DNA of 64,000 nt from Klebsiella phage FKP3. The position numbers and the translations under genes are program-made. Of the stretch, positions 4,199 to 61,883 are shown piece after piece. Each line of letters starts with the position of its first letter. The first letter of the stretch is position 1. The stretch lies in sequence record PP895363.1; one strand, written 5' to 3'. The notes beneath the pieces are model-generated. The model did not search any database. It worked only from the letters and a program-made list of their open reading frames with translations, and was not told the DNA's origin.

Positions 4199-5251
4199 AT
4201 GAATACTTTCAGCAAATTTTATAAGTGGCCTTCCATCTTTTTTGGAATAGCTTTGATTGCAGGTGCATGGATCGGATATGCAGAAGCGGGGATTACTGGT
4301 TTGATTAACGGGATGGTAGCAGTTGGTATTCTGTGTATTCTTGAAATCTCCCTGTCGTTTGATAACGCTGTACTTAATGCAAAGAAACTCCAAGATATGG
4401 AGCCTAAATGGCGAGACTGGTTTGTTAAGTGGGGTATGCTCATTGCAGTATTTGGTATGCGCTTAGTGTTGCCTATCCTTATTGTGTCTGTTCTAGGCGG
4501 GATGACACCGTGGAAAGCAGTGGATTTAGGTTTACATAATCCGGCAGAATACGCTTCTGTTCTACAAAGTAGTCATCATATTGTAGCAAGTTTCGGTGGT
4601 GCGTTCCTGATGATGGTTGCTCTTGAGTTCTTTTTAGACCATGAGAAAGACAACCACTGGTTCAAATGGATTGAATATCCAATCTCCCACATCGGTAAGA
4701 TTGGTATTGCAGCCGAAGCGGGTATTACAGCAGTTCTGATTCTTCTTGCAAGTCTGGGTGCGCATGACCACGAACGTGTAGTGTTCTGGATCTCTGGTGC
4801 AGCAGGTATTGGTTTGTTCGTAGCAATCCACTTCCTGAAAGAATACCTGGAGTCACATGATGAGAAAGCCTCTGCGGCAGCAGGTGCGGTAGTGAAGTCT
4901 GGTTTAGCTGGTGTGCTCTACCTTGAAGTTCTGGATGCATCCATGTCCTTCGACGGTCTGATTGCAGCATTCGCTATCACTCAATACTTCATCGTGATTA
5001 TGCTTGGTCTGGGCGTTGGTGCGTTCTTTGTGCGAGAAATGACTCTTCATGTTCTGGATTCAGGACATCTGGCAGAGTTCCGCTACTTGGAACACGGTGC
5101 GTTTTACGCAATCTTTGCCCTGGCAAGCATTATGCTCCTAAACTTCTTCTTTGAAGTTCCAGAGGTGGTAACTGGTTTGATGGGTGTAGCATTCTTAGGC
5201 TCTGCGGTGTATCACAGCCACATCCTGAATAAACGTGAAGCGACAGCTTAA
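4199..5251 (+). CDS. terC: TerC-family integral membrane protein
   Basis: Repeated TerC signatures EISLSFDNAVL and EVLDASMSFDGLIAAF, multiple TM segments, 350 aa. Confidence 0.75.
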   Translation: MNTFSKFYKWPSIFFGIALIAGAWIGYAEAGITGLINGMVAVGILCILEISLSFDNAVLNAKKLQDMEPKWRDWFVKWGMLIAVFGMRLVLPILIVSVLGGMTPWKAVDLGLHNPAEYASVLQSSHHIVASFGGAFLMMVALEFFLDHEKDNHWFKWIEYPISHIGKIGIAAEAGITAVLILLASLGAHDHERVVFWISGAAGIGLFVAIHFLKEYLESHDEKASAAAGAVVKSGLAGVLYLEVLDASMSFDGLIAAFAITQYFIVIMLGLGVGAFFVREMTLHVLDSGHLAEFRYLEHGAFYAIFALASIMLLNFFFEVPEVVTGLMGVAFLGSAVYHSHILNKREATA

Positions 5252-5473: not shown

Positions 5474-5676
5474 AAATCCTGAAAGCAGTGTGGTTTGTGT
5501 TCGAAAGTATTTGTTTCGGTGTAGGTTTATTTATTTTAATTGTAGCATTGACAGCGGTAGTAAGTGGTGGTAGTATTAGCATCAGTAAAGACGAGAAGCC
5601 AGTTTTTTGCTACTCGTTAGATAACAATCAATGTATTAACACTTTAAGCGAGGAAACAAAACATGAACAAAACTAA
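5470..5676 (+). CDS. small membrane protein, 68 aa
   Basis: GTG start overlapping previous stop, RBS AAGGAG; hydrophobic N-terminus. Confidence 0.5.
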   Translation: MKILKAVWFVFESICFGVGLFILIVALTAVVSGGSISISKDEKPVFCYSLDNNQCINTLSEETKHEQN

Positions 5677-6226
5677 ACTGGTGATCGGTGCAATCATTAT
5701 CGGCCTAGGTGTTACAATGCTGAGCGCATGTGATGACGATGTTCCAGCACAAACCCAATACATCCCTGCGCCGCAGCAACAACAAGTGGATGAGCAGTAT
5801 GTTAACCAACAACCTCCACAAGTGATTCAGTCTGCTCCTGCGCCTGTTATCGTGCAGAGTGGCAGTCATGATTCCGGTGTTGGAGACTTTGCAACAGGTA
5901 TGATTTTAGGTCACATGATGTCTGGTGGTGGTAACAATGGCGGTGGTTATAGCAATAACTCTAGCCGTACCACGATCATCAATAACAACACTGTGGCTCA
6001 ACCACGCAGTAGCTACTCCTCAAATAGCCGTAGCTCTTATTCAACAAATAAGCAGGTGTATCAAAGCCAACCACGTTCAACGAGCACCCAAACGTATTCA
6101 CGTCCTACTATGAATACTAACAGTAGTTATACTACTAAAAAATCCTACTCTAGCCCACTAAGTTCTTCTCGTAGCTACAGTAGTTCTTCTAGCCGTAAAA
6201 GTTATAGCTCTAGTCGTCGTCGCTAA
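5663..6226 (+). CDS. predicted lipoprotein, Ser/Tyr/Asn-rich low-complexity C-terminus
   Basis: Signal peptide with lipobox LSAC (MNKTKLVIGAIIIGLGVTMLSAC), 187 aa. Confidence 0.6.
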   Translation: MNKTKLVIGAIIIGLGVTMLSACDDDVPAQTQYIPAPQQQQVDEQYVNQQPPQVIQSAPAPVIVQSGSHDSGVGDFATGMILGHMMSGGGNNGGGYSNNSSRTTIINNNTVAQPRSSYSSNSRSSYSTNKQVYQSQPRSTSTQTYSRPTMNTNSSYTTKKSYSSPLSSSRSYSSSSSRKSYSSSRRR

Positions 6227-6238
6227 TAAGGAGGAAAC

Positions 6239-6478
6239 ATGTTTAATAATGCAAAGAAAGGTGATATCGCGGTAATGGTAGATACGGACTTTTCAGCACA
6301 CGGAGATAAAGATCAACTGGAGATTGTCCTAGTTGACGAAGAGGGTATCTACGTCTACGATCCGAATGACAGACTCCTTTTCGAACATGCCAGTGGTGTT
6401 GAATACAGCTTCTGTATTGACTTCAACGGTAAGTTGGCAGGACGTGAGCCAGCAATTAAAGAAATCATTCCGCAGTAA
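6239..6478 (+). CDS. hypothetical protein, 79 aa; its 3' end contains the left boundary of the 1000-bp duplication
   Basis: RBS AAGGAGGAAAC before ATG 6239. Confidence 0.5.
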   Translation: MFNNAKKGDIAVMVDTDFSAHGDKDQLEIVLVDEEGIYVYDPNDRLLFEHASGVEYSFCIDFNGKLAGREPAIKEIIPQ

Positions 6479-6548
6479 GGTTGACTTTTGCTTAGGGATA
6501 CTTCATAGTGTCCCTTGTCAAGAGAAATAAATAAATGAAGGAGAAAGT

Positions 6549-7227
6549 ATGAAACTTATTTTAGGTCGTGTGTACAATCTGAGCGGTTCCAGTTTTTCTA
6601 CACAAGTTTTAGAAGATAATAATAATCTGTTCTGGCTGGATCACATTGATCAGAGGATGAACGAGTGGCGTTTTAAAGGTTTGACTACAGGGGATTTTCA
6701 GTGGTCAAGCGCGGCTATGATCCGTGCTGGTGAAGCAGAAATTTTCTTGGTAGATGATAAACCGAAACGTGGTAAGCGTAAGAAAGGCCCATCTCGTAAA
6801 GCACCAAGTGTGAATAAGGCGACTATTCTGTTCATGAGCGGGGAAACCTACACTGTAAAAGGCTTTGTGTCCCTTGAAGCCACTGCTGAAAAAACTGTGT
6901 TTATTATGGAAGACACTTGGAAGGATACAGTAAATAGCCGTAATGGCGACTATTCTGTTCATGAGCGGGGAAACCTACACTGTAAAAGGCTTTGTGTCCC
7001 TTGAAGCCACTGCTGAAAAAACTGTGTTTATTATGGAAGACACTTGGAAGGATACAGTAAATAGCCGTAATGCAATCACTGTGTACAATGAGGATATTGC
7101 GCAGATAGATGTTCGTGGAATTAAGCATCAAGTGGTATTAGATATGGCTTTGAAAGATGAAGGCACGTTAGTGCTTCATTCTAAAGATATGCTAATATTT
7201 TTATCAGATCTAACTATTGCGGAATAA
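6549..7227 (+). pseudogene. hypothetical gene disrupted by the internal 127-bp duplication (track ORFs 6549-7004 and 6943-7227 are its two halves)
   Basis: Deleting one 127-bp unit restores a single ORF MKLILGRVYN...NSRNAITVYNEDIAQ...LTIAE. Confidence 0.6.
6819..7072 (+). repeat. nested 127-bp tandem duplication (6819-6945 = 6946-7072) inside repeat copy 1
   Basis: Two identical 127-nt units head to tail; 127 is not a multiple of 3, so the host ORF is frameshifted. Confidence 0.9.
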
Positions 7228-7237
7228 ATAACAAAAG

Positions 7238-7459
7238 ATGCATAGTACAAGAGATATTCTAAATTTATGGAAAACTACATTATGTAAATTTAAAGAAGAC
7301 TTTCCTGAATACGATGCCCTGCTAAAGGCCAACGGATGGCGAGCAGGTGTTAGAGAAAAAAGAAATAAATCTTTTGGTTGGGCAGATAATAGAAGTAAGT
7401 TAGTTATTATCAATTGGCATCTGCATAAAAACTCGGAAGAGCATAGAGCCAGCAATTAA
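7238..7459 (+). pseudogene. 5' fragment of SprT-like gene truncated at the duplication junction
   Basis: Identical to the first 208 nt of 8238-8816, then diverges at 7446 and stops. Confidence 0.6.
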
Positions 7460-7548
7460 AGAAATCATTCCGCAGTAAGGTTGACTTTTGCTTAGGGATA
7501 CTTCATAGTGTCCCTTGTCAAGAGAAATAAATAAATGAAGGAGAAAGT

Positions 7549-8227
7549 ATGAAACTTATTTTAGGTCGTGTGTACAATCTGAGCGGTTCCAGTTTTTCTA
7601 CACAAGTTTTAGAAGATAATAATAATCTGTTCTGGCTGGATCACATTGATCAGAGGATGAACGAGTGGCGTTTTAAAGGTTTGACTACAGGGGATTTTCA
7701 GTGGTCAAGCGCGGCTATGATCCGTGCTGGTGAAGCAGAAATTTTCTTGGTAGATGATAAACCGAAACGTGGTAAGCGTAAGAAAGGCCCATCTCGTAAA
7801 GCACCAAGTGTGAATAAGGCGACTATTCTGTTCATGAGCGGGGAAACCTACACTGTAAAAGGCTTTGTGTCCCTTGAAGCCACTGCTGAAAAAACTGTGT
7901 TTATTATGGAAGACACTTGGAAGGATACAGTAAATAGCCGTAATGGCGACTATTCTGTTCATGAGCGGGGAAACCTACACTGTAAAAGGCTTTGTGTCCC
8001 TTGAAGCCACTGCTGAAAAAACTGTGTTTATTATGGAAGACACTTGGAAGGATACAGTAAATAGCCGTAATGCAATCACTGTGTACAATGAGGATATTGC
8101 GCAGATAGATGTTCGTGGAATTAAGCATCAAGTGGTATTAGATATGGCTTTGAAAGATGAAGGCACGTTAGTGCTTCATTCTAAAGATATGCTAATATTT
8201 TTATCAGATCTAACTATTGCGGAATAA
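7549..8227 (+). pseudogene. second copy of the same disrupted gene (within duplicate 2)
   Basis: Identical to 6549-7227. Confidence 0.6.
7819..8072 (+). repeat. same nested 127-bp tandem duplication inside repeat copy 2
   Basis: 7819-7945 = 7946-8072, identical to the copy-1 arrangement. Confidence 0.9.
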
Positions 8228-8237
8228 ATAACAAAAG

Positions 8238-8816
8238 ATGCATAGTACAAGAGATATTCTAAATTTATGGAAAACTACATTATGTAAATTTAAAGAAGAC
8301 TTTCCTGAATACGATGCCCTGCTAAAGGCCAACGGATGGCGAGCAGGTGTTAGAGAAAAAAGAAATAAATCTTTTGGTTGGGCAGATAATAGAAGTAAGT
8401 TAGTTATTATCAATTGGCATCTGCATAAAAACTCGGAAGAGCATAACATTGTTGATACTATGCTACATGAGATAGCCCATGCAATAGATTTTTGTAAAAG
8501 AGGTAGATCTGATCATGGCGCTGCATGGAAAGCAATAGCGCAGGAAATAGGAGCTATTCCTAAAGCTGTATCAAAGCGTTCTGTTAAAACAGAATATCCT
8601 TGGGTAATGGCTCTCGTATCAGATGGCGAATTAAGATTTATCAGAGGGTATAATCGCCGTCCTTCTAGGCAAAAACCTAATAGTATAATGTGGGGAACCT
8701 ACCTTAGTAAAGATAAGGAAGGAACCATTGATAAAATTTGGTTATTGTCTTGGGAAGAATGGCTTAAGAAGTGTGATGCTATGGGGATCTCTCCCTACTA
8801 TGAAGACAGAAAATAA
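8238..8816 (+). CDS. SprT-like zinc metalloprotease domain protein
   Basis: HExxH motif HEIAHAIDF with downstream conserved D/H; 192 aa. Confidence 0.6.
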   Translation: MHSTRDILNLWKTTLCKFKEDFPEYDALLKANGWRAGVREKRNKSFGWADNRSKLVIINWHLHKNSEEHNIVDTMLHEIAHAIDFCKRGRSDHGAAWKAIAQEIGAIPKAVSKRSVKTEYPWVMALVSDGELRFIRGYNRRPSRQKPNSIMWGTYLSKDKEGTIDKIWLLSWEEWLKKCDAMGISPYYEDRK

Positions 8817-8825
8817 GGAGGCAAC

Positions 8826-9923
8826 ATGTCTAGTCCATTTTTAACTGCTGTTAAAACAACTCCAAGCAAGAGTGCATTGGCTGCAAAAGAAGATACACGG
8901 TCGGCATTAGCCCCAACTGTCTTTGATTCTAGCCCTGTGTATGCGCCTGCTGTAGTAAAACCTGTTCCAGACCTCCCTGCAATGACTCGTAAAGAGATTG
9001 ATAATGTAGGTGCAGAGGCTGGATTAACTCTACGTAGTTTAAACAATGAAGTGCTGAAACATCAGCGTGGTAATCAGGGTGGAGAGATGAATGAACGTCT
9101 CACCGCTCTTATTAAACAAGCTAAACAATTAGACCCCAGCGCGATTAAACAATCGAAGGGTGTTGGCAAGTTCATCAAAAAGTTGATGGGTATGAAAGAA
9201 GACCTGTTTGCAGAGTATGATACTATTAATAATCGTATTGATGTTCTTGTCAAAGAACTGGAGGGCGATGTTAGAAAAGAAGAAGATTCTCTTGTTTATC
9301 TCGAAAAACTTAAAATGGCTATTGGACAATATGCATTAAGTTTAAATCGGGATGTAGAACTTTTGACAGATACCTATGAGAAAGAAGAAGCACGTTTCAA
9401 TATGCTACCAGAGGATCAGGTCGAAGAACGCCAAGCTGTGCGTGATACTTTAGACATTCTGGAGATCCGTATTGCCGACTTAAAAGCGCTGCGTCTTCTT
9501 TGTGTCCAAATGGGGCCACGTGTTAATAGTATGATCAAAGTAAGCGAAATGCTTATGCGATCTGCACGTAACATCGTGAACAATGTTATTCCAGCGTACT
9601 CTGCCAACTTCTCAATGTATATTGAGAGTTTGCGTCAGGCAGAAGCTGGTCAAACCCAAGCTAATGTATTGGATGAATTCCAAGTAGCGCTAAAAATGGG
9701 TAGTGATTTAGCAGCACAAAATATTATTACTGCAACTGAACTCTCTAATCGTCAAGTGCTGGATATTGAAACACTCCGTCACGATCAAGAAAATCTGGTA
9801 CGTATGCTGGAAGAAACAAACCGAATCAATACTGAAGCACGTGCTGCCCGTATTGAGTACATCAATGAAGTACAATCCCTAGAGGATGGGATGGTACAGA
9901 AAGTCAAAGCTGGTTTAGTCTAA
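8826..9923 (+). CDS. telA: TelA-like protein (toxic anion resistance family)
   Basis: Alpha-helical 365-aa protein with C-terminal block NRQVLDIETLRHDQENLVRMLEETNRINTEARAARIEYINEV matching the TelA signature (VVDIETL...); RBS AAGGAGG. Confidence 0.6.
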   Translation: MSSPFLTAVKTTPSKSALAAKEDTRSALAPTVFDSSPVYAPAVVKPVPDLPAMTRKEIDNVGAEAGLTLRSLNNEVLKHQRGNQGGEMNERLTALIKQAKQLDPSAIKQSKGVGKFIKKLMGMKEDLFAEYDTINNRIDVLVKELEGDVRKEEDSLVYLEKLKMAIGQYALSLNRDVELLTDTYEKEEARFNMLPEDQVEERQAVRDTLDILEIRIADLKALRLLCVQMGPRVNSMIKVSEMLMRSARNIVNNVIPAYSANFSMYIESLRQAEAGQTQANVLDEFQVALKMGSDLAAQNIITATELSNRQVLDIETLRHDQENLVRMLEETNRINTEARAARIEYINEVQSLEDGMVQKVKAGLV

Positions 9924-50869: not shown

Positions 50870-52075
50870 TTATCTTGATCTTATTTTATAAGGTTGACCA
50901 AAAGATGCCCTACTTCCACTAGACATTTTACCATATCCTGTGGTAGCTCCTAGTGGCGTAGGAATGGCTACAGCCTTGAATACAGCCTCTTTCATCAGTG
51001 TATTAAAACAAGATGCCGCAGCATCCGGGATATCGTCTTTGAGTGTTGCAGTAGACCTCTCTCCATTGAAAGATTCTAATTCTTTATAAAAGTGATCTAA
51101 AGTTTCTTTATTTGGGAAAGAGTCTTCAACAATATATACAAAACCATTTTGACAAGCACTACTAAAAGGCATAAAACGCTGTAGTTTCTTTTTGTTCCCT
51201 GGCATTGCATCAGGTTTTACAATGAAACCTTCAGAAATAAGCTTCTTAGCAGATTCTGTATATTCAATCAAACCTGCACCAGATGGGTCTTTAGGAAGAA
51301 CTACAATAACCTCATCTCCATCAATTTTACATTGATTAAGAATCAAATTATCTCGTTCACCCGGTAATCTTCTAAATCTACCAAAGATTTTACTTTTCTC
51401 ATCTACTGCATCGTAATCATAATCTCCGAAGATATAGACATTACCATCAGTATCTTTACCCATTTTGACAGACGTGGTATAGTCTGGATAACGATACGAT
51501 TCTGTCGGAACAGATACAGCTTTATCCCATGCTCGCATATACTTCATATTATTTGGCACATCTGAATATTTAATTACATGCAACCATTCTCTATTGAAGA
51601 AACTTTCTTCTTGTGCTCTTGCAAACCAACACCCATCTAAGAGCTGTGCTCTTTTCACTGCGGTTTGTGCTTTCAGAGAGGCTAGATATTTAGGATTAAG
51701 ACGTATAAGCTCTGGATTATCAAATATAGTTCCGCCGATAAATACAAAGCTCTGCGGTTCGATAGTAACTATTTCGCCTGTATTTGGGTTTTCCATGAAG
51801 CAGTTTTCAGGATACTTTTCCTTTAGTTCTTCTGGGTCTTCTGCAAATACCGGTTCATCATTTACAATAAGAAAATATAGTTGTTTACCACACATGTCGT
51901 CGCGTGGAAATCCTGCTTCATCTAGATAAGGTAATACCCAATTAATAACCCAACTATCTGCATCTGGGTTACAGGTGCATAGCATAAAAGATGTTGCAGA
52001 CTCAGAACGTAAACGACCAAGAAGGTAAAGCATTTCATATTGTGTGAAATGTGTCCTGGTGTTCGAGAAGGCACG
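50870..52075 (-). CDS. terL: terminase large subunit, downstream exon (remainder of ATPase C-motif plus nuclease domain)
   Basis: FMLCTCNPDAD (TxN coupling motif) and nuclease-domain acidic residues; frame open upstream of ATG 52033 to stop at 52076-52078. Confidence 0.75.
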   Translation of the reverse strand, partial: RAFSNTRTHFTQYEMLYLLGRLRSESATSFMLCTCNPDADSWVINWVLPYLDEAGFPRDDMCGKQLYFLIVNDEPVFAEDPEELKEKYPENCFMENPNTGEIVTIEPQSFVFIGGTIFDNPELIRLNPKYLASLKAQTAVKRAQLLDGCWFARAQEESFFNREWLHVIKYSDVPNNMKYMRAWDKAVSVPTESYRYPDYTTSVKMGKDTDGNVYIFGDYDYDAVDEKSKIFGRFRRLPGERDNLILNQCKIDGDEVIVVLPKDPSGAGLIEYTESAKKLISEGFIVKPDAMPGNKKKLQRFMPFSSACQNGFVYIVEDSFPNKETLDHFYKELESFNGERSTATLKDDIPDAAASCFNTLMKEAVFKAVAIPTPLGATTGYGKMSSGSRASFGQPYKIRSR

Positions 52076-53392
52076 TTACGACCTTCCCCGAGATTACTCT
52101 CTGCTGCATGTTTCCATGCAGAGCAGACTATATCATCATCCATTAGGATGCCTTGCGCTTCGCCTCACTTGAGGCTACTCTACTCACTTCCGTATTTCTA
52201 CGTGCTTTCGATAGTCGTTAAACTTTACACCACACAAACTAAAAATTATAATCCTTGGATACTTCTGTAAAAGTTTTCCTAGATTTTATTCCGTACACTC
52301 TCTGATAGTTTAGGTGTTCACTGCAATGCATCTTAACTATTGCACCACATTTAAAACCTTTCTCTAACATCTCGCATATCCATTTAACTGTCTCTACTGA
52401 TAAGGTAGCTGGTCGCGTCAGATTGAAAGTATAATCTTTCACTATGTCTGCAAATATAGCCTTCCTTTTAATATTTCGTACTGTGTGATAAGCTACACCA
52501 ACTGTTTCAGAAACATCTTTCGGACTCAAGCCCTCTTCTAAAAGCTCACAGATCGTTCTTACTTCATGTTCTGTCATATTAGTATTTGGACTATTTATAC
52601 CAGCAGCTTTTACATGTAAACCTGTGTCATAAGCATGTTGTACGTTCTGAGAACAACTTACCCATTCCAAATTACTAGGATGATAATTCATTTTATTTCC
52701 ATCCTTATGGTTTACTTGTTTGTACTCCTCTGGAGAAGGATTCTCTACAAAGATTTCAGCCACTATGACATGGAGAGATTTTGTAGTTCTGCGTCCTGTA
52801 TCAGTAGTCATTGCAACAGCAGGATAACCTCCTCTATTACAACGAATAGTTAATTTATTATTTAGTTTTGTACTAAAGATTTCATAATTATCAGTCATAT
52901 GATACTTAGAAAATCCTTTTATTTCATGCATTTTCACCTCCTGCTAACATTAGGAGTTTGCATGGTGTCTTAGCTTGGTATTGCCCTCGTCTCTACGTTA
53001 GGGGTTTCACCAAATTCACAAGGTTTTCGATACATGTTCCCATGTAAAGGCTCTAAAAATCAAAGCTCGTCGAAACCGACCATACTGTATTGTGTACCTT
53101 GCAGTACGTGTTGATTTACTTAGCATATAGGTAAATCGGAGGATTCCTCCTCACCCTTTATGTTACCATAAAGATCAGACCATATCATAACCCACGTCCT
53201 ATGGGTTGTTGGCGCTTGGAGATCGCTTGATCCCTACTCTACTTACAAGCTTTAGCATCTTGCGTCTTGCTTTCGATGGTCGTTGCACCTTACTCCGAAG
53301 AGTCTTGGCTCAGGATTGTCCTCACAATGAGGAGTTTCCCTGAATTCACCAACTTATTCAACATACATTACTGTATGAGGCCACCAAGTTTA
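52034..53392 (-). mobile_element. intron-like insertion in terL (~1.35 kb; probably group I) carrying an HNH homing endonuclease ORF; exact splice sites not determined
   Basis: Noncoding, structure-rich flanks 52076-52238 and 52938-53392 around an in-orientation HNH ORF; it separates the Walker-A-containing terL segment from the C-motif/nuclease segment. Confidence 0.6.
52239..52937 (-). CDS. HNH homing endonuclease (NUMOD4-like N-terminus, HNH motif NHKDGNKMNYHPSNLEW, C-terminal HTH-like repeats)
   Basis: Motifs seen in translation; embedded in the terL interruption in the same orientation. Confidence 0.8.
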   Translation of the reverse strand: MKMHEIKGFSKYHMTDNYEIFSTKLNNKLTIRCNRGGYPAVAMTTDTGRRTTKSLHVIVAEIFVENPSPEEYKQVNHKDGNKMNYHPSNLEWVSCSQNVQHAYDTGLHVKAAGINSPNTNMTEHEVRTICELLEEGLSPKDVSETVGVAYHTVRNIKRKAIFADIVKDYTFNLTRPATLSVETVKWICEMLEKGFKCGAIVKMHCSEHLNYQRVYGIKSRKTFTEVSKDYNF

Positions 53393-54253
53393 ATGGTTAG
53401 TTTCCGCTGTTACGTTATCATTTTCTAAGTGGTCGAATTTTAATGTTCCACCTCCGGTAGCTCTGAACTCCATTTCCATAGCTTGTTCACGAACATGTGG
53501 CTGAAGTTTCAGATATAGCTTTTTAGCTTCTGTAAATAACCCACCAGGCTTACGTAGAGCTGTTGTATTTTTACGGAATAGGATTCCGCCAAACAGTGGG
53601 TCTTTGCAAGCATATTTTAAAGCTTTCAGCAGGAGTAGACGAGACTTGCCGCTATTCCCAGTAACGAAGATATGATCGCCACGTCTAAAGACAACATAAC
53701 TGCTTGGAGTTTCAAAACAATATTTTTTATCATCACTTGTCATTACCTCGTGTATTTTTAGATAAGTGTTAGTTTTACCTGAGATATTAAATGGTACTCT
53801 TTTACCGAAAGGATTTTCTACATACCCTCTAAGTGGTTCTCCTGCTTGCTGCAATGCAATAAGATCTCCAACTAAAATCTCAAAATGTTTTTTAGATTTT
53901 TTCTTTTTATAGAATACAAACCTGTGTTCCATACTAAGTTCTTGGAATAAACCCACACCATTTGTTATTCTATATAAGTTATCTTTTGTATCATACTCTA
54001 CAAAGTATGGACTAACTAACTCCAGTTTCCTGTTTCTTGGATTGTATTGATAAATATCTTCTCCCGAGTATTGATCAATTCTCTTCCATCCTGCTGGTGT
54101 TAAATACTCTGTCTCTGCTGTAACGCATCCCGCAGCACCCCCATAAATCATTACCTCTGGCATTAAATCCATTGCTAATGTTTGTTTACCCGGTTGAGCT
54201 TTTACTTCAATCTCAATATTTGCTAAGTTTGTCTTAACTGGTTTACGTGCCAA
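53393..54253 (-). CDS. terL: terminase large subunit, upstream exon (Walker A ATPase N-terminus) including an in-frame mini-intein
   Basis: MIYGGAAG...SGKSRLLL reconstitutes the P-loop GGAAGSGKS once residues 43-200 are removed. Confidence 0.75.
53654..54127 (-). other. mini-intein (158 aa) inserted in the terminase P-loop
   Basis: Begins CVTAETEYLTPAGW (block A Cys1), block-B-like SMEH, ends ...HIFVTGN followed by +1 Ser; codon positions verified on the DNA. Confidence 0.65.
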
Positions 54254-55757: not shown

Positions 55758-55834
55758 TGGTACTCCGAACTGGACTCGAACCAGTGTTTGACGATTATCA
55801 GTCGCCTGTTCTTGCCATCTGAACTATCAGAGTA
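55758..55834 (-). tRNA. tRNA-Ile(GAU)
   Basis: Manual cloverleaf: anticodon loop CUGAUAA, T-loop TTCGAGT, CCA encoded. Confidence 0.7.
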
Positions 55835-55953
55835 TGAATGTGTGGGCTAGTCTCTTAGCCCTATGCTATACTTGTCTCTTACAGACTGACGTAGCACACG
55901 TGCAGCGACCCTTCATATTTATTTTACATCTACAGAAGGTCATTAGATAGATT

Positions 55954-56031
55954 TGGCAGCAAAGCGAGGAGTCGAACCCCTTAGTCTGTGGTTTGGAGCC
56001 ACATAGAGCGCCATGCTCATTTAAACTTGCT
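55954..56031 (-). tRNA. tRNA-Trp(CCA), D-region irregular
   Basis: Anticodon stem TGTGG/CCACA with loop CTCCAAA; T-loop TTCGACT; CCA encoded. Confidence 0.5.
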
Positions 56032-56042
56032 CGGCTATTGTT

Positions 56043-56120
56043 TGGAGTCAGGGGCGGGAGTCGAACCCGCAATCTTGAGCATATGAAACTCACATGGTAA
56101 ATCCATTCCACCACCCTGCG
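56043..56120 (-). tRNA. tRNA-Met(CAU) copy 1 (first acceptor pairs mismatched)
   Basis: Anticodon loop TTCATAT, T-arm GCGGG-TTCGACT-CCCGC. Confidence 0.55.
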
Positions 56121-56127
56121 CATTATT

Positions 56128-56203
56128 TGGTAGTAACTAAGAGAATCAAACTCTTCTCACAACGCCGTATGAAAGCGTTCGAAACATCAGCTTCACAGTT
56201 ACT
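56128..56203 (-). tRNA. tRNA-like, anticodon CAU candidate, atypical T-loop TTTGATT (possible pseudo-tRNA)
   Basis: Perfect 7-bp acceptor AGTAACT/AGTTACT, T-stem AAGAG/CTCTT, irregular D/anticodon arms. Confidence 0.35.
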
Positions 56204-56208
56204 TTTAA

Positions 56209-56472
56209 TTAAACACGATGAATAATTTTAACTGTCTCGCCTTTATCATTCATCAAATAAGCACTTTCATCTTTGTGTATGAAGGTGGTAGAACTTCCGC
56301 TGATAACGCTGGCAATAACACTATCTGGCTTTTGATAGCCTTCAAAATGGTATTGGACTTTTATGTTACCATCGAGTTCTATATAATGTTCTTCTTCATC
56401 TACATCAAAAGGTACTGAATCATAAATTTTTGTCCCTTGTGGGAACTTACGAATAATTTTTAATGTGTACAT
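56209..56472 (-). CDS. hypothetical protein, 87 aa, embedded in the tRNA array
   Basis: RBS AAGGAAG upstream in minus sense; ORF. Confidence 0.5.
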   Translation of the reverse strand: MYTLKIIRKFPQGTKIYDSVPFDVDEEEHYIELDGNIKVQYHFEGYQKPDSVIASVISGSSTTFIHKDESAYLMNDKGETVKIIHRV

Positions 56473-56559
56473 AATGCTTCCTTAGTAGTATTTAGTATTA
56501 AATAAATGTGCCGTCCCAAGCCGAACGGCGATTAGTGTTATTGCTTGGCATTGATAATA

Positions 56560-56634
56560 TGGTACTTCCTACAGGAATCGAACCTATGACGCTCACCGTG
56601 TAAAGATGACGTTCTGCCATTGAACTAAGGAAGT
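56560..56634 (-). tRNA. tRNA-Val(UAC)
   Basis: Perfect acceptor, anticodon loop TTTACAC, T-loop TTCGATT. Confidence 0.7.
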
Positions 56635-56707
56635 ATGGCGGGGATTTCCCGCACTGTCTATCGCGATATGGACTCCGACAGTGTTCTCGGTTAAATACCC
56701 CATTATT

Positions 56708-56795
56708 TGGTGCTTCAGGTGAGACTCGAACTCACAATCCTCTAGGGCGCTGGCTTCTAAGACCAGAGTGTATATCCATTTCCACCACTGAAGCA
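56708..56795 (-). tRNA. tRNA-Leu(UAG), class II
   Basis: 88 nt, anticodon loop CTTAGAA, long variable arm, perfect acceptor. Confidence 0.7.
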
Positions 56796-56925
56796 TTATT
56801 TAGTATAGGTTAAGAGTTGTATCGGCCCTCTTCTTAAACGGTGAAAGGAAAGTTTGGTTTTTCTCCAAACGTGCTAACACCTTTTACATCCACTCTAAGT
56901 CATCGGACGCAACCTATATTTTTTT

Positions 56926-57001
56926 TGGTGGAGCCGGAGAGAATCGAACTCTCAACAGGAAAGGTGCAAACCTCCCTCGCTACCTTAGTACATGCAACCC
57001 C
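56926..57001 (-). tRNA. tRNA-Ala(UGC)
   Basis: Anticodon loop TTTGCAC, T-arm GAGAG-TTCGATT-CTCTC. Confidence 0.6.
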
Positions 57002-57133
57002 AAATTTTTGCGCCCCTTTGTAGTGAATGTCTTTAAGCGGAGTCTTTAATGCAAGCAATAAATTTACTCACACACTTAATCTTAGACCTACTCAGATGGA
57101 CGGCTTTAGCATGGCGTCCCATACCTTCTTAAT

Positions 57134-57209
57134 TGGCACGGATGGAAGGAGTCGAACCTCCGGCGCAGGGCTTCGTAAACCCTCGTTCTGTCCACTGAAC
57201 TACACCCGT
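57134..57209 (-). tRNA. tRNA-Arg(ACG)
   Basis: D-stem GTTC/GAAC, anticodon loop TTACGAA. Confidence 0.7.
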
Positions 57210-57338
57210 ATAATACTTTGCCTAAAACGCCACAACTTGTTTGGTCTTGCACCGTGTCAGTTGCTATTTATCGGTAGAATTTGAGCCATTAACCTGAGCG
57301 AATATTTGTCATGGTTGTCACACCATCAAGGCAAAACT

Positions 57339-57413
57339 TGGTGCAACCTACAGGTATCGAGCCTGTCTATCTGCCTTTTCAGGGCAGCACTCATCCATCT
57401 AAGTCAAAGTTGC
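57339..57413 (-). tRNA. tRNA-Phe(GAA)
   Basis: Anticodon stem CTGCC/GGCAG with loop CTGAAAA. Confidence 0.65.
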
Positions 57414-57553
57414 ATATTATTAATTGTCATCATGGAAACCGAAAATCCACGCCATATCAACTCGAAGTTAAAAATCCTTGACTTCGGCACCATCTGGTGC
57501 TGGCTAGGCACTACCTAGCAGGACAGTCACAAAATCGTGACGATGACAAAATT

Positions 57554-57631
57554 TGGTCTCCGTAGAAAGATTTGAACTTTCGACCCCACCGCCCCAAACG
57601 GCATACTCTGACCAGGCTGAGCTACACGGAG
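57554..57631 (-). tRNA. tRNA-Pro(UGG)
   Basis: Anticodon loop TTTGGGG, T-loop TTCAAAT, perfect acceptor. Confidence 0.7.
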
Positions 57632-57716
57632 ATAATACTTTCGAGGAGATCTCACCCTATACAGCAAAACCGTATACTATCTGTCAGGGTTACTGTATAC
57701 TGTGCTCCTCTGAATT

Positions 57717-57792
57717 TGGCTGGGGATCTTGGAATCGAACCAAGTCGATGACGAGTTCAAAGCCCGTCGCCTTCCCATTTGGCTAATCCCCA
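57717..57792 (-). tRNA. tRNA-Gln(UUG)
   Basis: Anticodon loop CTTTGAA, T-arm CTTGG/CCAAG. Confidence 0.6.
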
Positions 57793-57799
57793 ATTAAAC

Positions 57800-57888
57800 T
57801 GGTATAGTGGACGGGATTCGAACCCGCAAGGTAGTTTCCTACTCTAGATTGAAAGTCTAGCTACTTCGACCGATTTGTATACCACTAT
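57800..57888 (-). tRNA. 89-nt tRNA with class-II-like variable hairpin (GTAG-GAAA-CTAC) but anticodon UUC (Glu)
   Basis: Perfect 7-bp acceptor, anticodon stem CTAGA/TCTAG with loop CTTTCAA, T-loop TTCGAAT. Confidence 0.5.
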
Positions 57889-58007
57889 ATAAAATTATTT
57901 AAAAAGGAATGCTAGAACTTGAAGGAGAAAACCATGAGCGAAAAGAGAAAGTTTTCTAACATTCCTGTCTAAATAATCTTGAAATAATCACTTTGTTCAA
58001 GAGTTGT

Positions 58008-58084
58008 TGGTGCGGGTGACAGGATTCGAACCTGCGACGAACTGGGTGGAAGCCAGACACTCTACCAGACTGAGTTACACACGC
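58008..58084 (-). tRNA. tRNA-Gly(UCC)
   Basis: Anticodon loop reads codon GGA; T-loop TTCGAAT. Confidence 0.6.
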
Positions 58085-58333
58085 ACTGATTAAGAACTCT
58101 ACAATATTACTCTACTACATTTTAATACTTATTGTCAAGTGTTAATTTAAAATTGTGAGACAGTGACGGATATCTCATAGATGACTAATCCTACGTCCGG
58201 CTTAAGCAAGGCGACGATATCGTACACCTTCTCGTCGATTGGCAGGAGCCGTTCCTCCTGAATTACTATCTAGCATCTGAGATGAAGACAGCCTCACCAA
58301 TCAACCTACTCCCAGTCACGGTTTCAGAACTTC

Positions 58334-58409
58334 TGGTGCTCCAAGTAGGTTTCGAACCCACGACCCCATGCTTACAAGGCAAGTGCTCTACCAACTGAGC
58401 TATTGAAGC
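58334..58409 (-). tRNA. tRNA-Thr(UGU)
   Basis: Anticodon loop CTTGTAA; T-loop TTCGAAA. Confidence 0.65.
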
Positions 58410-58626
58410 AAATAGTATTTTATTATTGAAAGGTATTCCACCATAATATCAAGGTTTGCCGATGCAGTAGTTCGGGAACTAGACAATGCCGCTTACGCGC
58501 TGGTTATCTCAATTCAAACCCACTGCAAACCGTGGTAGTTGAGGCCAGTTTCTTTTCCACTTGTTTCCACTTATAAGTCTTAACCAGACCGGGATACGGG
58601 CTTATAAGATCATCAATAATAAAATT

Positions 58627-58711
58627 TGGCGATGGATCAAGGATTTGAACCTTGCTGGAGATTTCTCTCACGGATTAACAGTCCGCCGCCCAACCACTAG
58701 GCCAATCCATC
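58627..58711 (-). tRNA. 85-nt tRNA with class-II-like variable hairpin (GAGA-GAAA-TCTC) but anticodon GUU (Asn)
   Basis: Perfect acceptor GATGGAT/ATCCATC, anticodon loop CTGTTAA, T-loop TTCAAAT. Confidence 0.5.
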
Positions 58712-58788
58712 ATTATTCTTTGTTAAGAGTAGGCGCGTATTCCGTCGCCTCGTGTTATTTTCTCCTGTTTCCAGGCTCCCTTTAGAGC

Positions 58789-58864
58789 AGCGGGCAGGGA
58801 GAATCGAACTCCCTTAGCATCTTTCAGCAAACCCGAAGGTCATTGTCTAGCCACGACCACCCGC
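58789..58864 (-). tRNA. tRNA-like gene without encoded CCA; anticodon arm irregular (possible 9-nt loop containing UUU)
   Basis: Good T-arm GGGAG-TTCGATT-CTCCC and acceptor GCGGGTG/TGCCCGC. Confidence 0.4.
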
Positions 58865-58901
58865 ACAGTTATGTGTACCTCTAAAGCTCTCTTAACTAAT
58901 C

Positions 58902-58984
58902 TGGTGTGGGTAGATGGATTCGAACCACCGCGCCTTTCGGATCTGATTTACAGTCAGGTGCATTCAGCCACTCTGCCATACCCA
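58902..58984 (-). tRNA. tRNA-Tyr(GUA), class II
   Basis: 83 nt, anticodon loop CTGTAAA, variable hairpin CC-GAAA-GG. Confidence 0.65.
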
Positions 58985-59059
58985 CATTATCTGGTGTGGT
59001 ACTTGTTACTGATTCTTCTGACGATACAGATACCTCTCATATAACTTTCCCACATTATC

Positions 59060-59136
59060 TGGTACGCCGGAAAGGATTCGAACCTTTATTCCTCTCGTTA
59101 AAAGCGAGATGCCTTATCCAGTTTAGCTACCGACGC
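59060..59136 (-). tRNA. tRNA-Lys(UUU)
   Basis: Perfect anticodon stem TCTCG/CGAGA, loop CTTTTAA. Confidence 0.7.
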
Positions 59137-59244
59137 ATAAATATTTTTTAAGATAGCAACCGCTTAACGATTGCTATAAGTTAAGGTTACTTTTAAACAA
59201 TAAATCAATCACCAATAACATCCTTGCTATCTTAAAAAACACTT

Positions 59245-59330
59245 TGGCGGAAGAGGGGAGGGTTGAACTCCCACGCCCTTTCGGACGGCAGTTTAGCAAA
59301 CTGCTATGGCTACCATTTCATCACTCTTCC
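59245..59330 (-). tRNA. tRNA-Ser(GCU), class II
   Basis: 86 nt, anticodon stem GCAGT/ACTGC, loop TTGCTAA. Confidence 0.7.
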
Positions 59331-59334
59331 TAAA

Positions 59335-59766
59335 TTAATTTCCTTTCGTTCTGTATTTGATGGCTCTTTTTTCAGGATCGTAGTTTTGTTTTCTTCTTTC
59401 CTGTTCGAGCAATCTTGCTTGTCTATATGCAACAGAACATTCTTCACAACGGCAACCTCTTTTTTGATACGCATAACTTGTACCGTGAACGATAGGTTTT
59501 TCAACCCTGTTTATTACCGTCCCAGTTTCACTTACACGTCTTGCTGCCGCAGAGTTACAGCTATGATGGCTATAACTAATATTCTCTAACCCAAAGAACA
59601 TCTTATCTGGTTCCTCTGAATATCTCCAAGGAACAATGTGTTCAATGCTATAATTGTCTTCGTTCATCTCTTTACCACAATGGTAACAAGAAGTTCTTCC
59701 TGTCTCGACAATCATTTGCCACATGAGTTTTCTTATCAGAATGTTTCGCGCTTTTCCCATCGACAT
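59335..59766 (-). CDS. HNH endonuclease embedded in the tRNA array (143 aa from ATG 59766)
   Basis: Zn-binding CYHCGKEM...SIEHIVPW...HHSCN HNH core; the track start at 59832 overlaps tRNA-Asp, so the internal Met with upstream purine-rich RBS is preferred. Confidence 0.7.
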   Translation of the reverse strand: MSMGKARNILIRKLMWQMIVETGRTSCYHCGKEMNEDNYSIEHIVPWRYSEEPDKMFFGLENISYSHHSCNSAAARRVSETGTVINRVEKPIVHGTSYAYQKRGCRCEECSVAYRQARLLEQERRKQNYDPEKRAIKYRTKGN

Positions 59767-59802
59767 ACCTAACTCGTCGCTCACGATACACTCCTTATAA
59801 AT

Positions 59803-59878
59803 TGGCGCGACTGACGATACTCGAACTCGCATTCTCTCCTGTGACAGGGGAGTACCATTACCTAGCCAGCCCCGCGAC
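59803..59878 (-). tRNA. tRNA-Asp(GUC); acceptor stem has 2 mismatches; flanked by direct repeat GCGCGACT
   Basis: Standard-position anticodon loop CTGTCAC, T-loop TTCGAGT, CCA encoded. Confidence 0.5.
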
Positions 59879-59884
59879 TATAAT

Positions 59885-59986
59885 TTATAAATCTGGTCGT
59901 TCATCTCTGTTAACTAAACGGATACCACCGTCAGATAAAACTTCAAGTTTTGAATATTGATAAACTACGACCTTGTTATCACTCAT
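59885..59986 (-). CDS. small ORF, 33 aa
   Basis: ATG with GGAGT RBS 6 nt upstream. Confidence 0.3.
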   Translation of the reverse strand: MSDNKVVVYQYSKLEVLSDGGIRLVNRDERPDL

Positions 59987-60028
59987 TGTTACTCCGGTTA
60001 ATACAAGCATTATAATCTCCTAAGTTTG

Positions 60029-60118
60029 TGGCGGAAGATAACGGAGTCGAACCATCACCATATCGCTACAGCGGGCTGGTTTTCAAGACCAGTTGCGTAC
60101 CGCTACGCCCTATCTTCC
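60029..60118 (-). tRNA. tRNA-Ser(UGA), class II
   Basis: 90 nt, perfect acceptor, anticodon stem CTGGT/ACCAG, loop CTTGAAA. Confidence 0.7.
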
Positions 60119-60194
60119 ACATCTATACTTACTACTCTATCATACTTTTCAATCAGTTGTCAAGAAAAACTTTCCACCTTTTTTGACAATTATT

Positions 60195-60269
60195 TGGTAG
60201 AGCCACTAGGAATCGAACCTAGACTGTAGAGTTAGAAGCTCCATTTGCTATCCATTACAACATAGCTCC
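60195..60269 (-). tRNA. tRNA-Arg(UCU)
   Basis: Anticodon loop CTTCTAA, T-arm CTAGG/CCTAG. Confidence 0.7.
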
Positions 60270-60296
60270 ATTTATTTAGGCCAACTATAACACACA

Positions 60297-60467
60297 CTAT
60301 TCGTTATTGTCAAGCTCTTTTTTAATTTCTTTTTTAGCTTTCTGACGTTCAGTAGCTTTACACACTTCTTGCCAAGAGTCGTACTCATCTCCTTTACGAT
60401 AGCCACGGCTACGACAAAGAGAACATAGACAACCTTCTTGACTATATTTCAAACCATGAGGTTTCAT
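60297..60467 (-). CDS. small Cys-rich protein, 56 aa (not in track)
   Basis: ATG 60467 after AAGGAA; CxC...C spacing. Confidence 0.4.
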   Translation of the reverse strand: MKPHGLKYSQEGCLCSLCRSRGYRKGDEYDSWQEVCKATERQKAKKEIKKELDNNE

Positions 60468-60475
60468 GAGTTTCC

Positions 60476-60727
60476 TTAGATTATCAGAGTTTTAAACTTA
60501 ATGCAAATGATTTTCTTCTTACCGCCTACATACTGCCAATGATGTATCTCCGCAGCTACTTCTAGGGAAGTTCCTACTTCACGGTAGGCGTGAGTGATTA
60601 CATCAATCCAGTATTCACAATCAGGCTGATAAATCATACTGTAGTGCTTATCAATCAACGTATTGATACCGCCGCAATCTCCAATTGTCTTACGCCACGG
60701 TGTACTCTTCATAACAAACTTTTCCAA
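60476..60727 (-). CDS. hypothetical protein, 83 aa
   Basis: ORF. Confidence 0.45.
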   Translation of the reverse strand: MEKFVMKSTPWRKTIGDCGGINTLIDKHYSMIYQPDCEYWIDVITHAYREVGTSLEVAAEIHHWQYVGGKKKIICIKFKTLII

Positions 60728-60849
60728 GTTTTATCAGGAATTTCTGATGGAGGAATCTTACCTTCTGTCTTGGCTTTATCGTCTACTGCTTTTTTAATAG
60801 CTTGAACCTGTGCCTCGGTTAAAGGGCCATCATCTTTTTCGTATGCCAT
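60709..60849 (-). CDS. small ORF, 46 aa
   Basis: ATG after AGGAGA. Confidence 0.3.
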   Translation of the reverse strand: MAYEKDDGPLTEAQVQAIKKAVDDKAKTEGKIPPSEIPDKTWKSLL

Positions 60850-61192
60850 TATATTTCTCCTATTTATTATCAAAACACATAAAGGAGGACAATGATCAGG
60901 TGACGTTTGCCAACGCCCTGCCGAAGTTTAGAGATGGTTGCAAATCATCCCCAACCGCATCACTGGTTTAAACTCACATGATCAGTGCTTGTTTCTGGAT
61001 ACTCACACGCCCATACGTGCAGACAGTTTTAACGCCAATCAATGCCTTTCTTTATATGTTCTGTATGGTTGACTGCTACAGGACTTGAACCTGTTTCTCT
61101 TCGCGCGGATTTACGTTGTACCAACATGTGAGGAATCGAACCTCTCCACTACCCTACCGAAGCGCATATACCTATCATGCTCATACAGTCAT

Positions 61193-61267
61193 TGGAGGAT
61201 GATATGGGATTTTAACCCATCTAATACTGTTTTGCAGACAGTCTCCTAGACACTCGGACAATCATCC
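61193..61267 (-). tRNA. tRNA-Cys(GCA), T-loop TTAAAAT atypical
   Basis: Perfect anticodon stem ACTGT/ACAGT with loop reading codon UGC; acceptor GGATGAT/ATCATCC. Confidence 0.6.
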
Positions 61268-61276
61268 CATTGAAAA

Positions 61277-61354
61277 TGGTGTGACTGGTGGGGCATGATC
61301 CCACATCATCTCCTTCACAGGGAGAAACGTTAACCAGCTTACGCTCACAGTCAC
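61277..61354 (-). tRNA. tRNA-His(GUG), T-loop sequence atypical
   Basis: Perfect anticodon stem TCTCC/GGAGA with loop reading codon CAC; perfect acceptor; extra 5' G possible. Confidence 0.6.
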
Positions 61355-61708
61355 CATTGATTTTGCAGTTGCTATTCTCCTTAAACACCGCACATACGGT
61401 ATTAAGCAGAATAACTTTCGTGCTGCTTCACGATGTGGAGTTCCCCACATTGAAGTTTGTTCACACTTGTCACAGTGCTTCTCTTCCGAGTAAACCACTC
61501 TCGTAGTTGCTGACAAACAACTCGTAAAATATATTCTCGTAAGAACATATATTGCGAGAGTTTGGCACCAGGAGGAGGAATCGAACACTCCTAATCAGGT
61601 CATGACTCCTGACTATCTCAAACCAAACACTGTTGTGTCGGCTATTGCATAATAGCGAGCGCTCACTCCTATGCAGACCTTCACCAGTGTCGAGATCCTG
61701 GTATTGTT

Positions 61709-61797
61709 TGGTGCGGGTAGTGGGAGTCGAACCCACAGGAGGAAACCCTCCGAGGGATTTTAAATCCCTTGCGTACTGCCAATACCGCCATACCCGC
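61709..61797 (-). tRNA. tRNA-Leu(UAA), class II
   Basis: 89 nt, anticodon stem AGGGA/TCCCT with loop TTTAAAA, variable hairpin GGAGG-AAAC-CCTCC. Confidence 0.7.
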
Positions 61798-61808
61798 ATT
61801 AAATTTAG

Positions 61809-61883
61809 TGACCCCCGGAGGATTCGAACCTACCTACCTCTCGATTATGAGTCGATTGCTCATACCTAATGAGCTTGAGGGCC
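61809..61883 (-). tRNA. tRNA with anticodon CAU (third CAU species: Met, fMet or Ile-lysidine), CCA not encoded
   Basis: D-stem CTCA/TGAG, anticodon loop CTCATAA, 7-bp acceptor GGCCCTC/GGGGGTC. Confidence 0.55.

Follow-up and report, generated by a model that had tools for sequence, protein, structure and literature searches.

Nested exact tandem repeats of 1000 and 127 bases in a Klebsiella phage sequence are very probably computational in origin

Real tandem duplications have arbitrary lengths and many of them, though by no means every one, show a few bases of microhomology at the junction. Exact repeats of another kind are found at the ends of phage DNA, with many phages carrying exact direct terminal repeats (of the T7-, T5- or N4-type), and the end-to-end joining of such a record generates a perfect tandem repeat. 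A third kind arises during assembly. The largest k-mer of SPAdes is 127, and phage genomes that are circular or circularly permuted emerge from it as linear contigs with a 127-base end repeat (PMC5923482, PMC8104045). The finishing of a phage genome calls for the removal of this artificial 127-bp terminal overlap (PMC5923482, PMC8104045), and a 127-bp terminal repeat of exactly this kind was removed in one phage genome announcement (PMC8104045).

The locus described here lies in a window of 64,000 nucleotides, the whole stretch of DNA that was analysed. It comprises an exact tandem repeat with a 1000-base unit (6446-8445), each copy of which holds a nested exact tandem duplication with a period of 127 bases (6818-7072 and 7818-8072) that was absent from an earlier sequence-only reading of this DNA. 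Both duplications are very probably computational rather than biological, the repeat being present in the sequence text but almost certainly not in the phage itself. The features at the locus are:

6239-6478, + strand: hypothetical gene of 79 aa, the last 11 codons of which (from 6446) lie inside the 1000-base unit and recur at 7446-7478
6446-7445: first copy of the 1000-base unit (U), with exact identity to 7446-8445; it would comprise the last 500 bases of a contig (6446-6945) followed by the first 500 (6946-7445)
6549-7227, + strand: hypothetical gene, 183 aa after collapse of the 127-base repeat, and repeated at 7549-8227
6819-7072: 127-base tandem pair in the first copy of U, read as 6819-6945 plus 6946-7072 or equally as 6818-6944 plus 6945-7071, one extra base being matched
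7238-7459, + strand: 5' fragment of an SprT-like gene, 73 aa, made up of 69 native codons and four out-of-frame codons (RASN)
7446-8445: second copy of U; 7445/7446 would be an artificial join at which the end of a padded record meets its own start
7819-8072: 127-base tandem pair in the second copy of U, detected by the repeat finder and by TRF
8238-8816, + strand: intact gene of the SprT-like zinc-metalloprotease family, 192 aa, Pfam PF10263

Direct comparison of 6446-7445 with 7446-8445 revealed no mismatches over 1000 positions, with the repeat finder reporting the same pair, which bears out the earlier claim that the two copies were identical to the base. The identity extends by 0 bases leftward and 0 bases rightward such that the unit is exactly 1000 bases. 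Comparison of the ends at 6445/6446, 7445/7446 and 8445/8446 identified 0 bases of microhomology, in keeping with the earlier statement that there was none of significance at the 1000-base junction, and no flanking repeats able to mediate a 1000-base duplication were found. Chance can be ruled out as a source of the repeats, since there are no other exact 20-mer repeats across the whole 64 kb.

Analysis of the inner repeat at 6818-7072 with TRF gave a period of 127, 2.0 copies, 100% matches and 0 indels. The run of period-127 identity covers 6818-6945, a total of 128 positions (127 plus one chance base), and as such the inner join must lie at either 6944/6945 or 6945/6946, with 1 base of microhomology at this junction. 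Junction microhomology of 0 bases for the 1000-base repeat and 1 base for the 127-base repeat falls short of what would mark a genuine duplication, a result that is suggestive only as blunt junctions occur. When the inner join is placed at 6945/6946 it splits the 1000-base unit into exactly 500 (6446-6945) and 500 (6946-7445) bases, while for a join positioned at random within the unit the probability of falling at the midpoint is about 2 in 747. The locus can be read as the tail of a contig, followed by its last 500 and first 500 bases, the same last 500 and first 500 bases again, and then the contig from base 501, with the 127-base overlap lying across the boundary inside each 500/500 pair.

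The left end of the 1000-base unit falls 11 codons ahead of the stop of the 79-aa gene, within the last codons of that ORF as had been reported, and the gene itself has single-copy homologues in the Klebsiella phages KP13-26 and KP2025 but no match in Pfam or PHROG. The gene starting at 6549 is split as written into ORFs 6549-7004 and 6943-7227 by a frameshift, which is caused by the 127-base duplication because 127 = 3n+1, and retranslation with one 127-base copy deleted restored a continuous 183-aa ORF. This ORF matches phrog_27504 (function unknown) and the relatives carry single-copy homologues of 180-181 aa. The sequence-only reading was correct in describing two copies of a disrupted intervening gene, with the disruption now seen to be the nested 127-base duplication. 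The gene at 8238-8816 matches PF10263 at 45 bits, above the gathering score of 25.6, and carries the HExxH motif as HEIAH at residues 77-81, downstream of 8445, which makes it a genuine member of the SprT-like family. The right end of the unit falls after codon 69 of this gene, in agreement with its earlier placement inside the SprT-like gene, and the description of a 5' fragment at 7238-7459 accompanied by a full copy at 8238-8816 also holds. The 73-aa fragment ends ahead of the HExxH motif and would owe its existence solely to the artificial join.

The relatives of the window are the Klebsiella phages phi1_175008, KP13-26 and KP2025 (Stephanstirmvirinae) with an identity of about 92-95%, and no closer relatives were present in the phage collection. 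The comparison with related phages that had been proposed as a check for a single-copy arrangement was run on these three, all of which are single-copy for both the 1000-base and the 127-base repeats. In all three the order at the locus is a small ORF, the 180-181-aa gene, the 579-base SprT-like gene and a TelA-like gene. With both duplications collapsed the window is colinear with every one of the relatives, with no gap or rearrangement at either former junction, and alignment with the three identified no boundary features at 6446 or 8445.

The arrangement seen here could be generated in two steps, in which the assembler and the padding step are deduced from the numbers alone. In the first, the phage genome would have been assembled by a de Bruijn-graph program with k set to 127, the highest value in SPAdes, with a circular or circularly permuted genome giving a linear contig, C, in which the last 127 bases repeat the first 127 and this overlap being left untrimmed. 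In the second, the contig would have been padded for circular handling as C[-500:] + C + C[:500], or by an equivalent operation, and the padded sequence joined end to start by circle closure or record rotation, or else the 64-kb window cut across the record ends. The outcome would be U U, with U consisting of the final 500 bases of the contig followed by its initial 500, and the 127-base overlap sitting at the exact centre of each U. The proposed padding-and-joining history yields the observed order of end500-start500-end500-start500 exactly. Another possibility, that the amplicon of a junction PCR had been added to the contig, was rejected, as this predicts the order end500-end500-start500-start500, and a real amplicon would be without the 127-base repeat.

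Like the SPAdes terminal overlap, the inner repeat consists of base-identical copies of 127 bases, is absent from the relatives, which are single-copy, and breaks a reading frame that is restored when one copy is removed. It differs from the published cases in that the copies are internal and in tandem rather than at the two ends of a contig, from which it follows that the ends would have been joined without trimming. It differs also in that a further layer of padding, 500 + 500 bases, surrounds the join and would itself have been joined. The computational origin of the repeats is argued from the lengths of 1000 and 127 bases, the exact 500/500 centring, the single-copy relatives and the recovery of an intact gene after collapse. 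The round length, the 127-base overlap at the 500/500 midpoint and the relatives lend strong support to the alternative raised in the sequence-only reading, that of an artefact of assembly or concatenation. In the phage itself the locus is most likely present once, 1127 bases shorter than written here, and carries a single SprT-like gene alongside a 183-aa gene free of the frameshift.

A rival reading is that the phage genome underwent two real tandem duplications, one nested in the other and both very recent, with the 127-base duplication in the 183-aa gene arising first and the 1000-base duplication then spanning it, through illegitimate recombination or replication slippage. The exactness of the copies fits recent events, and a very recent real duplication would look identical. 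The locus consists of mosaic and apparently dispensable small accessory genes in which disruption could be tolerated, and the 1.1 kb surplus amounts to under 1% where the genome is about 148 kb long. The likeness to a recent phage tandem duplication extends to the head-to-tail exact copies, the truncation of one gene copy and the doubling of the intervening genes. The difference lies in the lengths of 1000 and 127 bases, the microhomology of 0 and 1 bases and the exactly symmetric geometry. A real duplication would need three independent coincidences, namely a length of exactly 1000 bases, an inner repeat equal to the SPAdes maximum k and a join at the 500/500 midpoint, in addition to which the 1000-base junction is without microhomology, none of the three relatives has a duplication here, and real events would abolish one gene and leave behind a useless piece of a second. 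Genuine nested duplications are therefore very improbable, and it is just as doubtful that the repeats record two successive rounds of tandem amplification in the accessory-gene region of a Stephanstirmvirinae-like Klebsiella phage. The earlier interpretation of recent genomic instability in a gene-amplification hotspot finds no backing in flanking repeats, microhomology or amplification in the relatives, and runs counter to the decimal and software-derived numbers. Likewise, the proposed change in gene dosage of the intervening ORFs is without support and this reading should be dropped.

If the virion DNA carried the unit as a true direct terminal repeat, appearing in tandem as the window crosses the ends of a linear record, it would resemble the T7-, T5- and N4-type repeats described above in that an exact repeat is turned tandem by circular closure. 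In contrast to those repeats the unit here is of round length, has its ends within two genes and an assembler overlap at its centre, and is matched by nothing in the records of related phages. Physical terminal repeats are without round decimal lengths and are not centred on assembler overlaps, the boundaries of such a repeat would sit inside two coding genes, and the records of the three relatives have neither a repeat nor a record end at this locus. On the basis of the round length, the boundaries within genes and the centring on the 127-base join, this explanation was rejected as scarcely credible.

The round decimal length could also reflect a repeat introduced on purpose or through a fault in data handling that had nothing to do with assembly, with an overlapping chunk fetch or a synthetic insertion at window preparation as examples. 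The source genome was found in no collection searched and hence there is no deposit with which to compare the window. In these searches the 39-mer spanning the 1000-base junction and the 42-mer spanning the 127-base junction were absent from viral_contigs, a source-specific internal 41-mer was absent there as well as from metagenome_contigs and genome_contigs, and exact-product look-ups returned no record of the 73-aa SprT fragment, the 151-aa frameshift product or the 192-aa SprT-like protein. Against such an event, a random insertion or chunk boundary would not have its centre fall at the exact base of an existing 127-base overlap join, and there is a single such event in 64 kb, making this origin unlikely. 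It too implies that the feature is not real, and it overlaps with the second step of the assembly-artefact explanation set out above.

For an artefact of assembly and circularisation, the sole importance of the repeat is one of data hygiene. As written, the annotation would gain a spurious SprT-like pseudogene fragment, two falsely frameshifted copies of the 183-aa gene and 1127 surplus bases, while the arrangement of all the relatives is recovered once 7446-8445 and a 127-base copy (such as 6946-7072) are deleted. The signature is that of an exact repeat of k-mer size placed precisely midway along an exact repeat of round length, and searching for it offers a rapid way to flag phage or plasmid records with faulty circularisation.

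The genes around the repeat vary among the relatives. The region 6239-6780 is a mosaic accessory region, in that phi1_175008 has in the small-ORF slot not the 79-aa ORF but another small gene unrelated to it. The 5' half of the 183-aa gene is strongly divergent in KP13-26 and KP2025, while here the window matches phi1_175008. Judged from the alignments, this mosaicism is evidence of recombination between relatives at the scale of genes and parts of genes. Immediately upstream, a 187-aa ORF (5663-6226, + strand) has no Pfam match and is conserved in all three relatives; its N-terminal hydrophobic segment ends in LSAC and resembles a lipoprotein signal, and Ser, Tyr, Asn and Arg are highly abundant in its C-terminal half. 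Tellurite-resistance-type genes are present on both sides, at 4199-5251 and 8826-9923, with products matching a TerC/DUF475 membrane protein (310 bits) and a TelA-like protein (115 bits), respectively. In KP2025 the genes downstream of the TelA-like gene are annotated as encoding a VWA domain-containing protein and a TerD-like protein.

Elsewhere in the window 23 tRNA genes are clustered at 55758-61883, every one of them on the - strand, with 20 of them also found by Rfam. The cluster covers 19 amino acids (Asp and Trp being absent) and includes three tRNA-Met(cat) genes. The large terminase gene (50870-54253, - strand) appears to be split, with a full-length group I intron at 53156-53403 (Rfam RF00028, 87 bits) followed by an HNH endonuclease ORF at 52239-52937 (Pfam HNH_3), the two sitting between an upstream ORF at 53390-54253 and an ORF at 50870-52033 that matches Terminase_6N/6C. 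In the closest relatives only 62% of this stretch is covered, by two segments with a span of about 2.2 kb as against 3.5 kb, and thus an insertion of about 1.3 kb is absent from them. From its sequence features the insertion resembles a mobile intron that carries a homing endonuclease and may have been gained by this phage.
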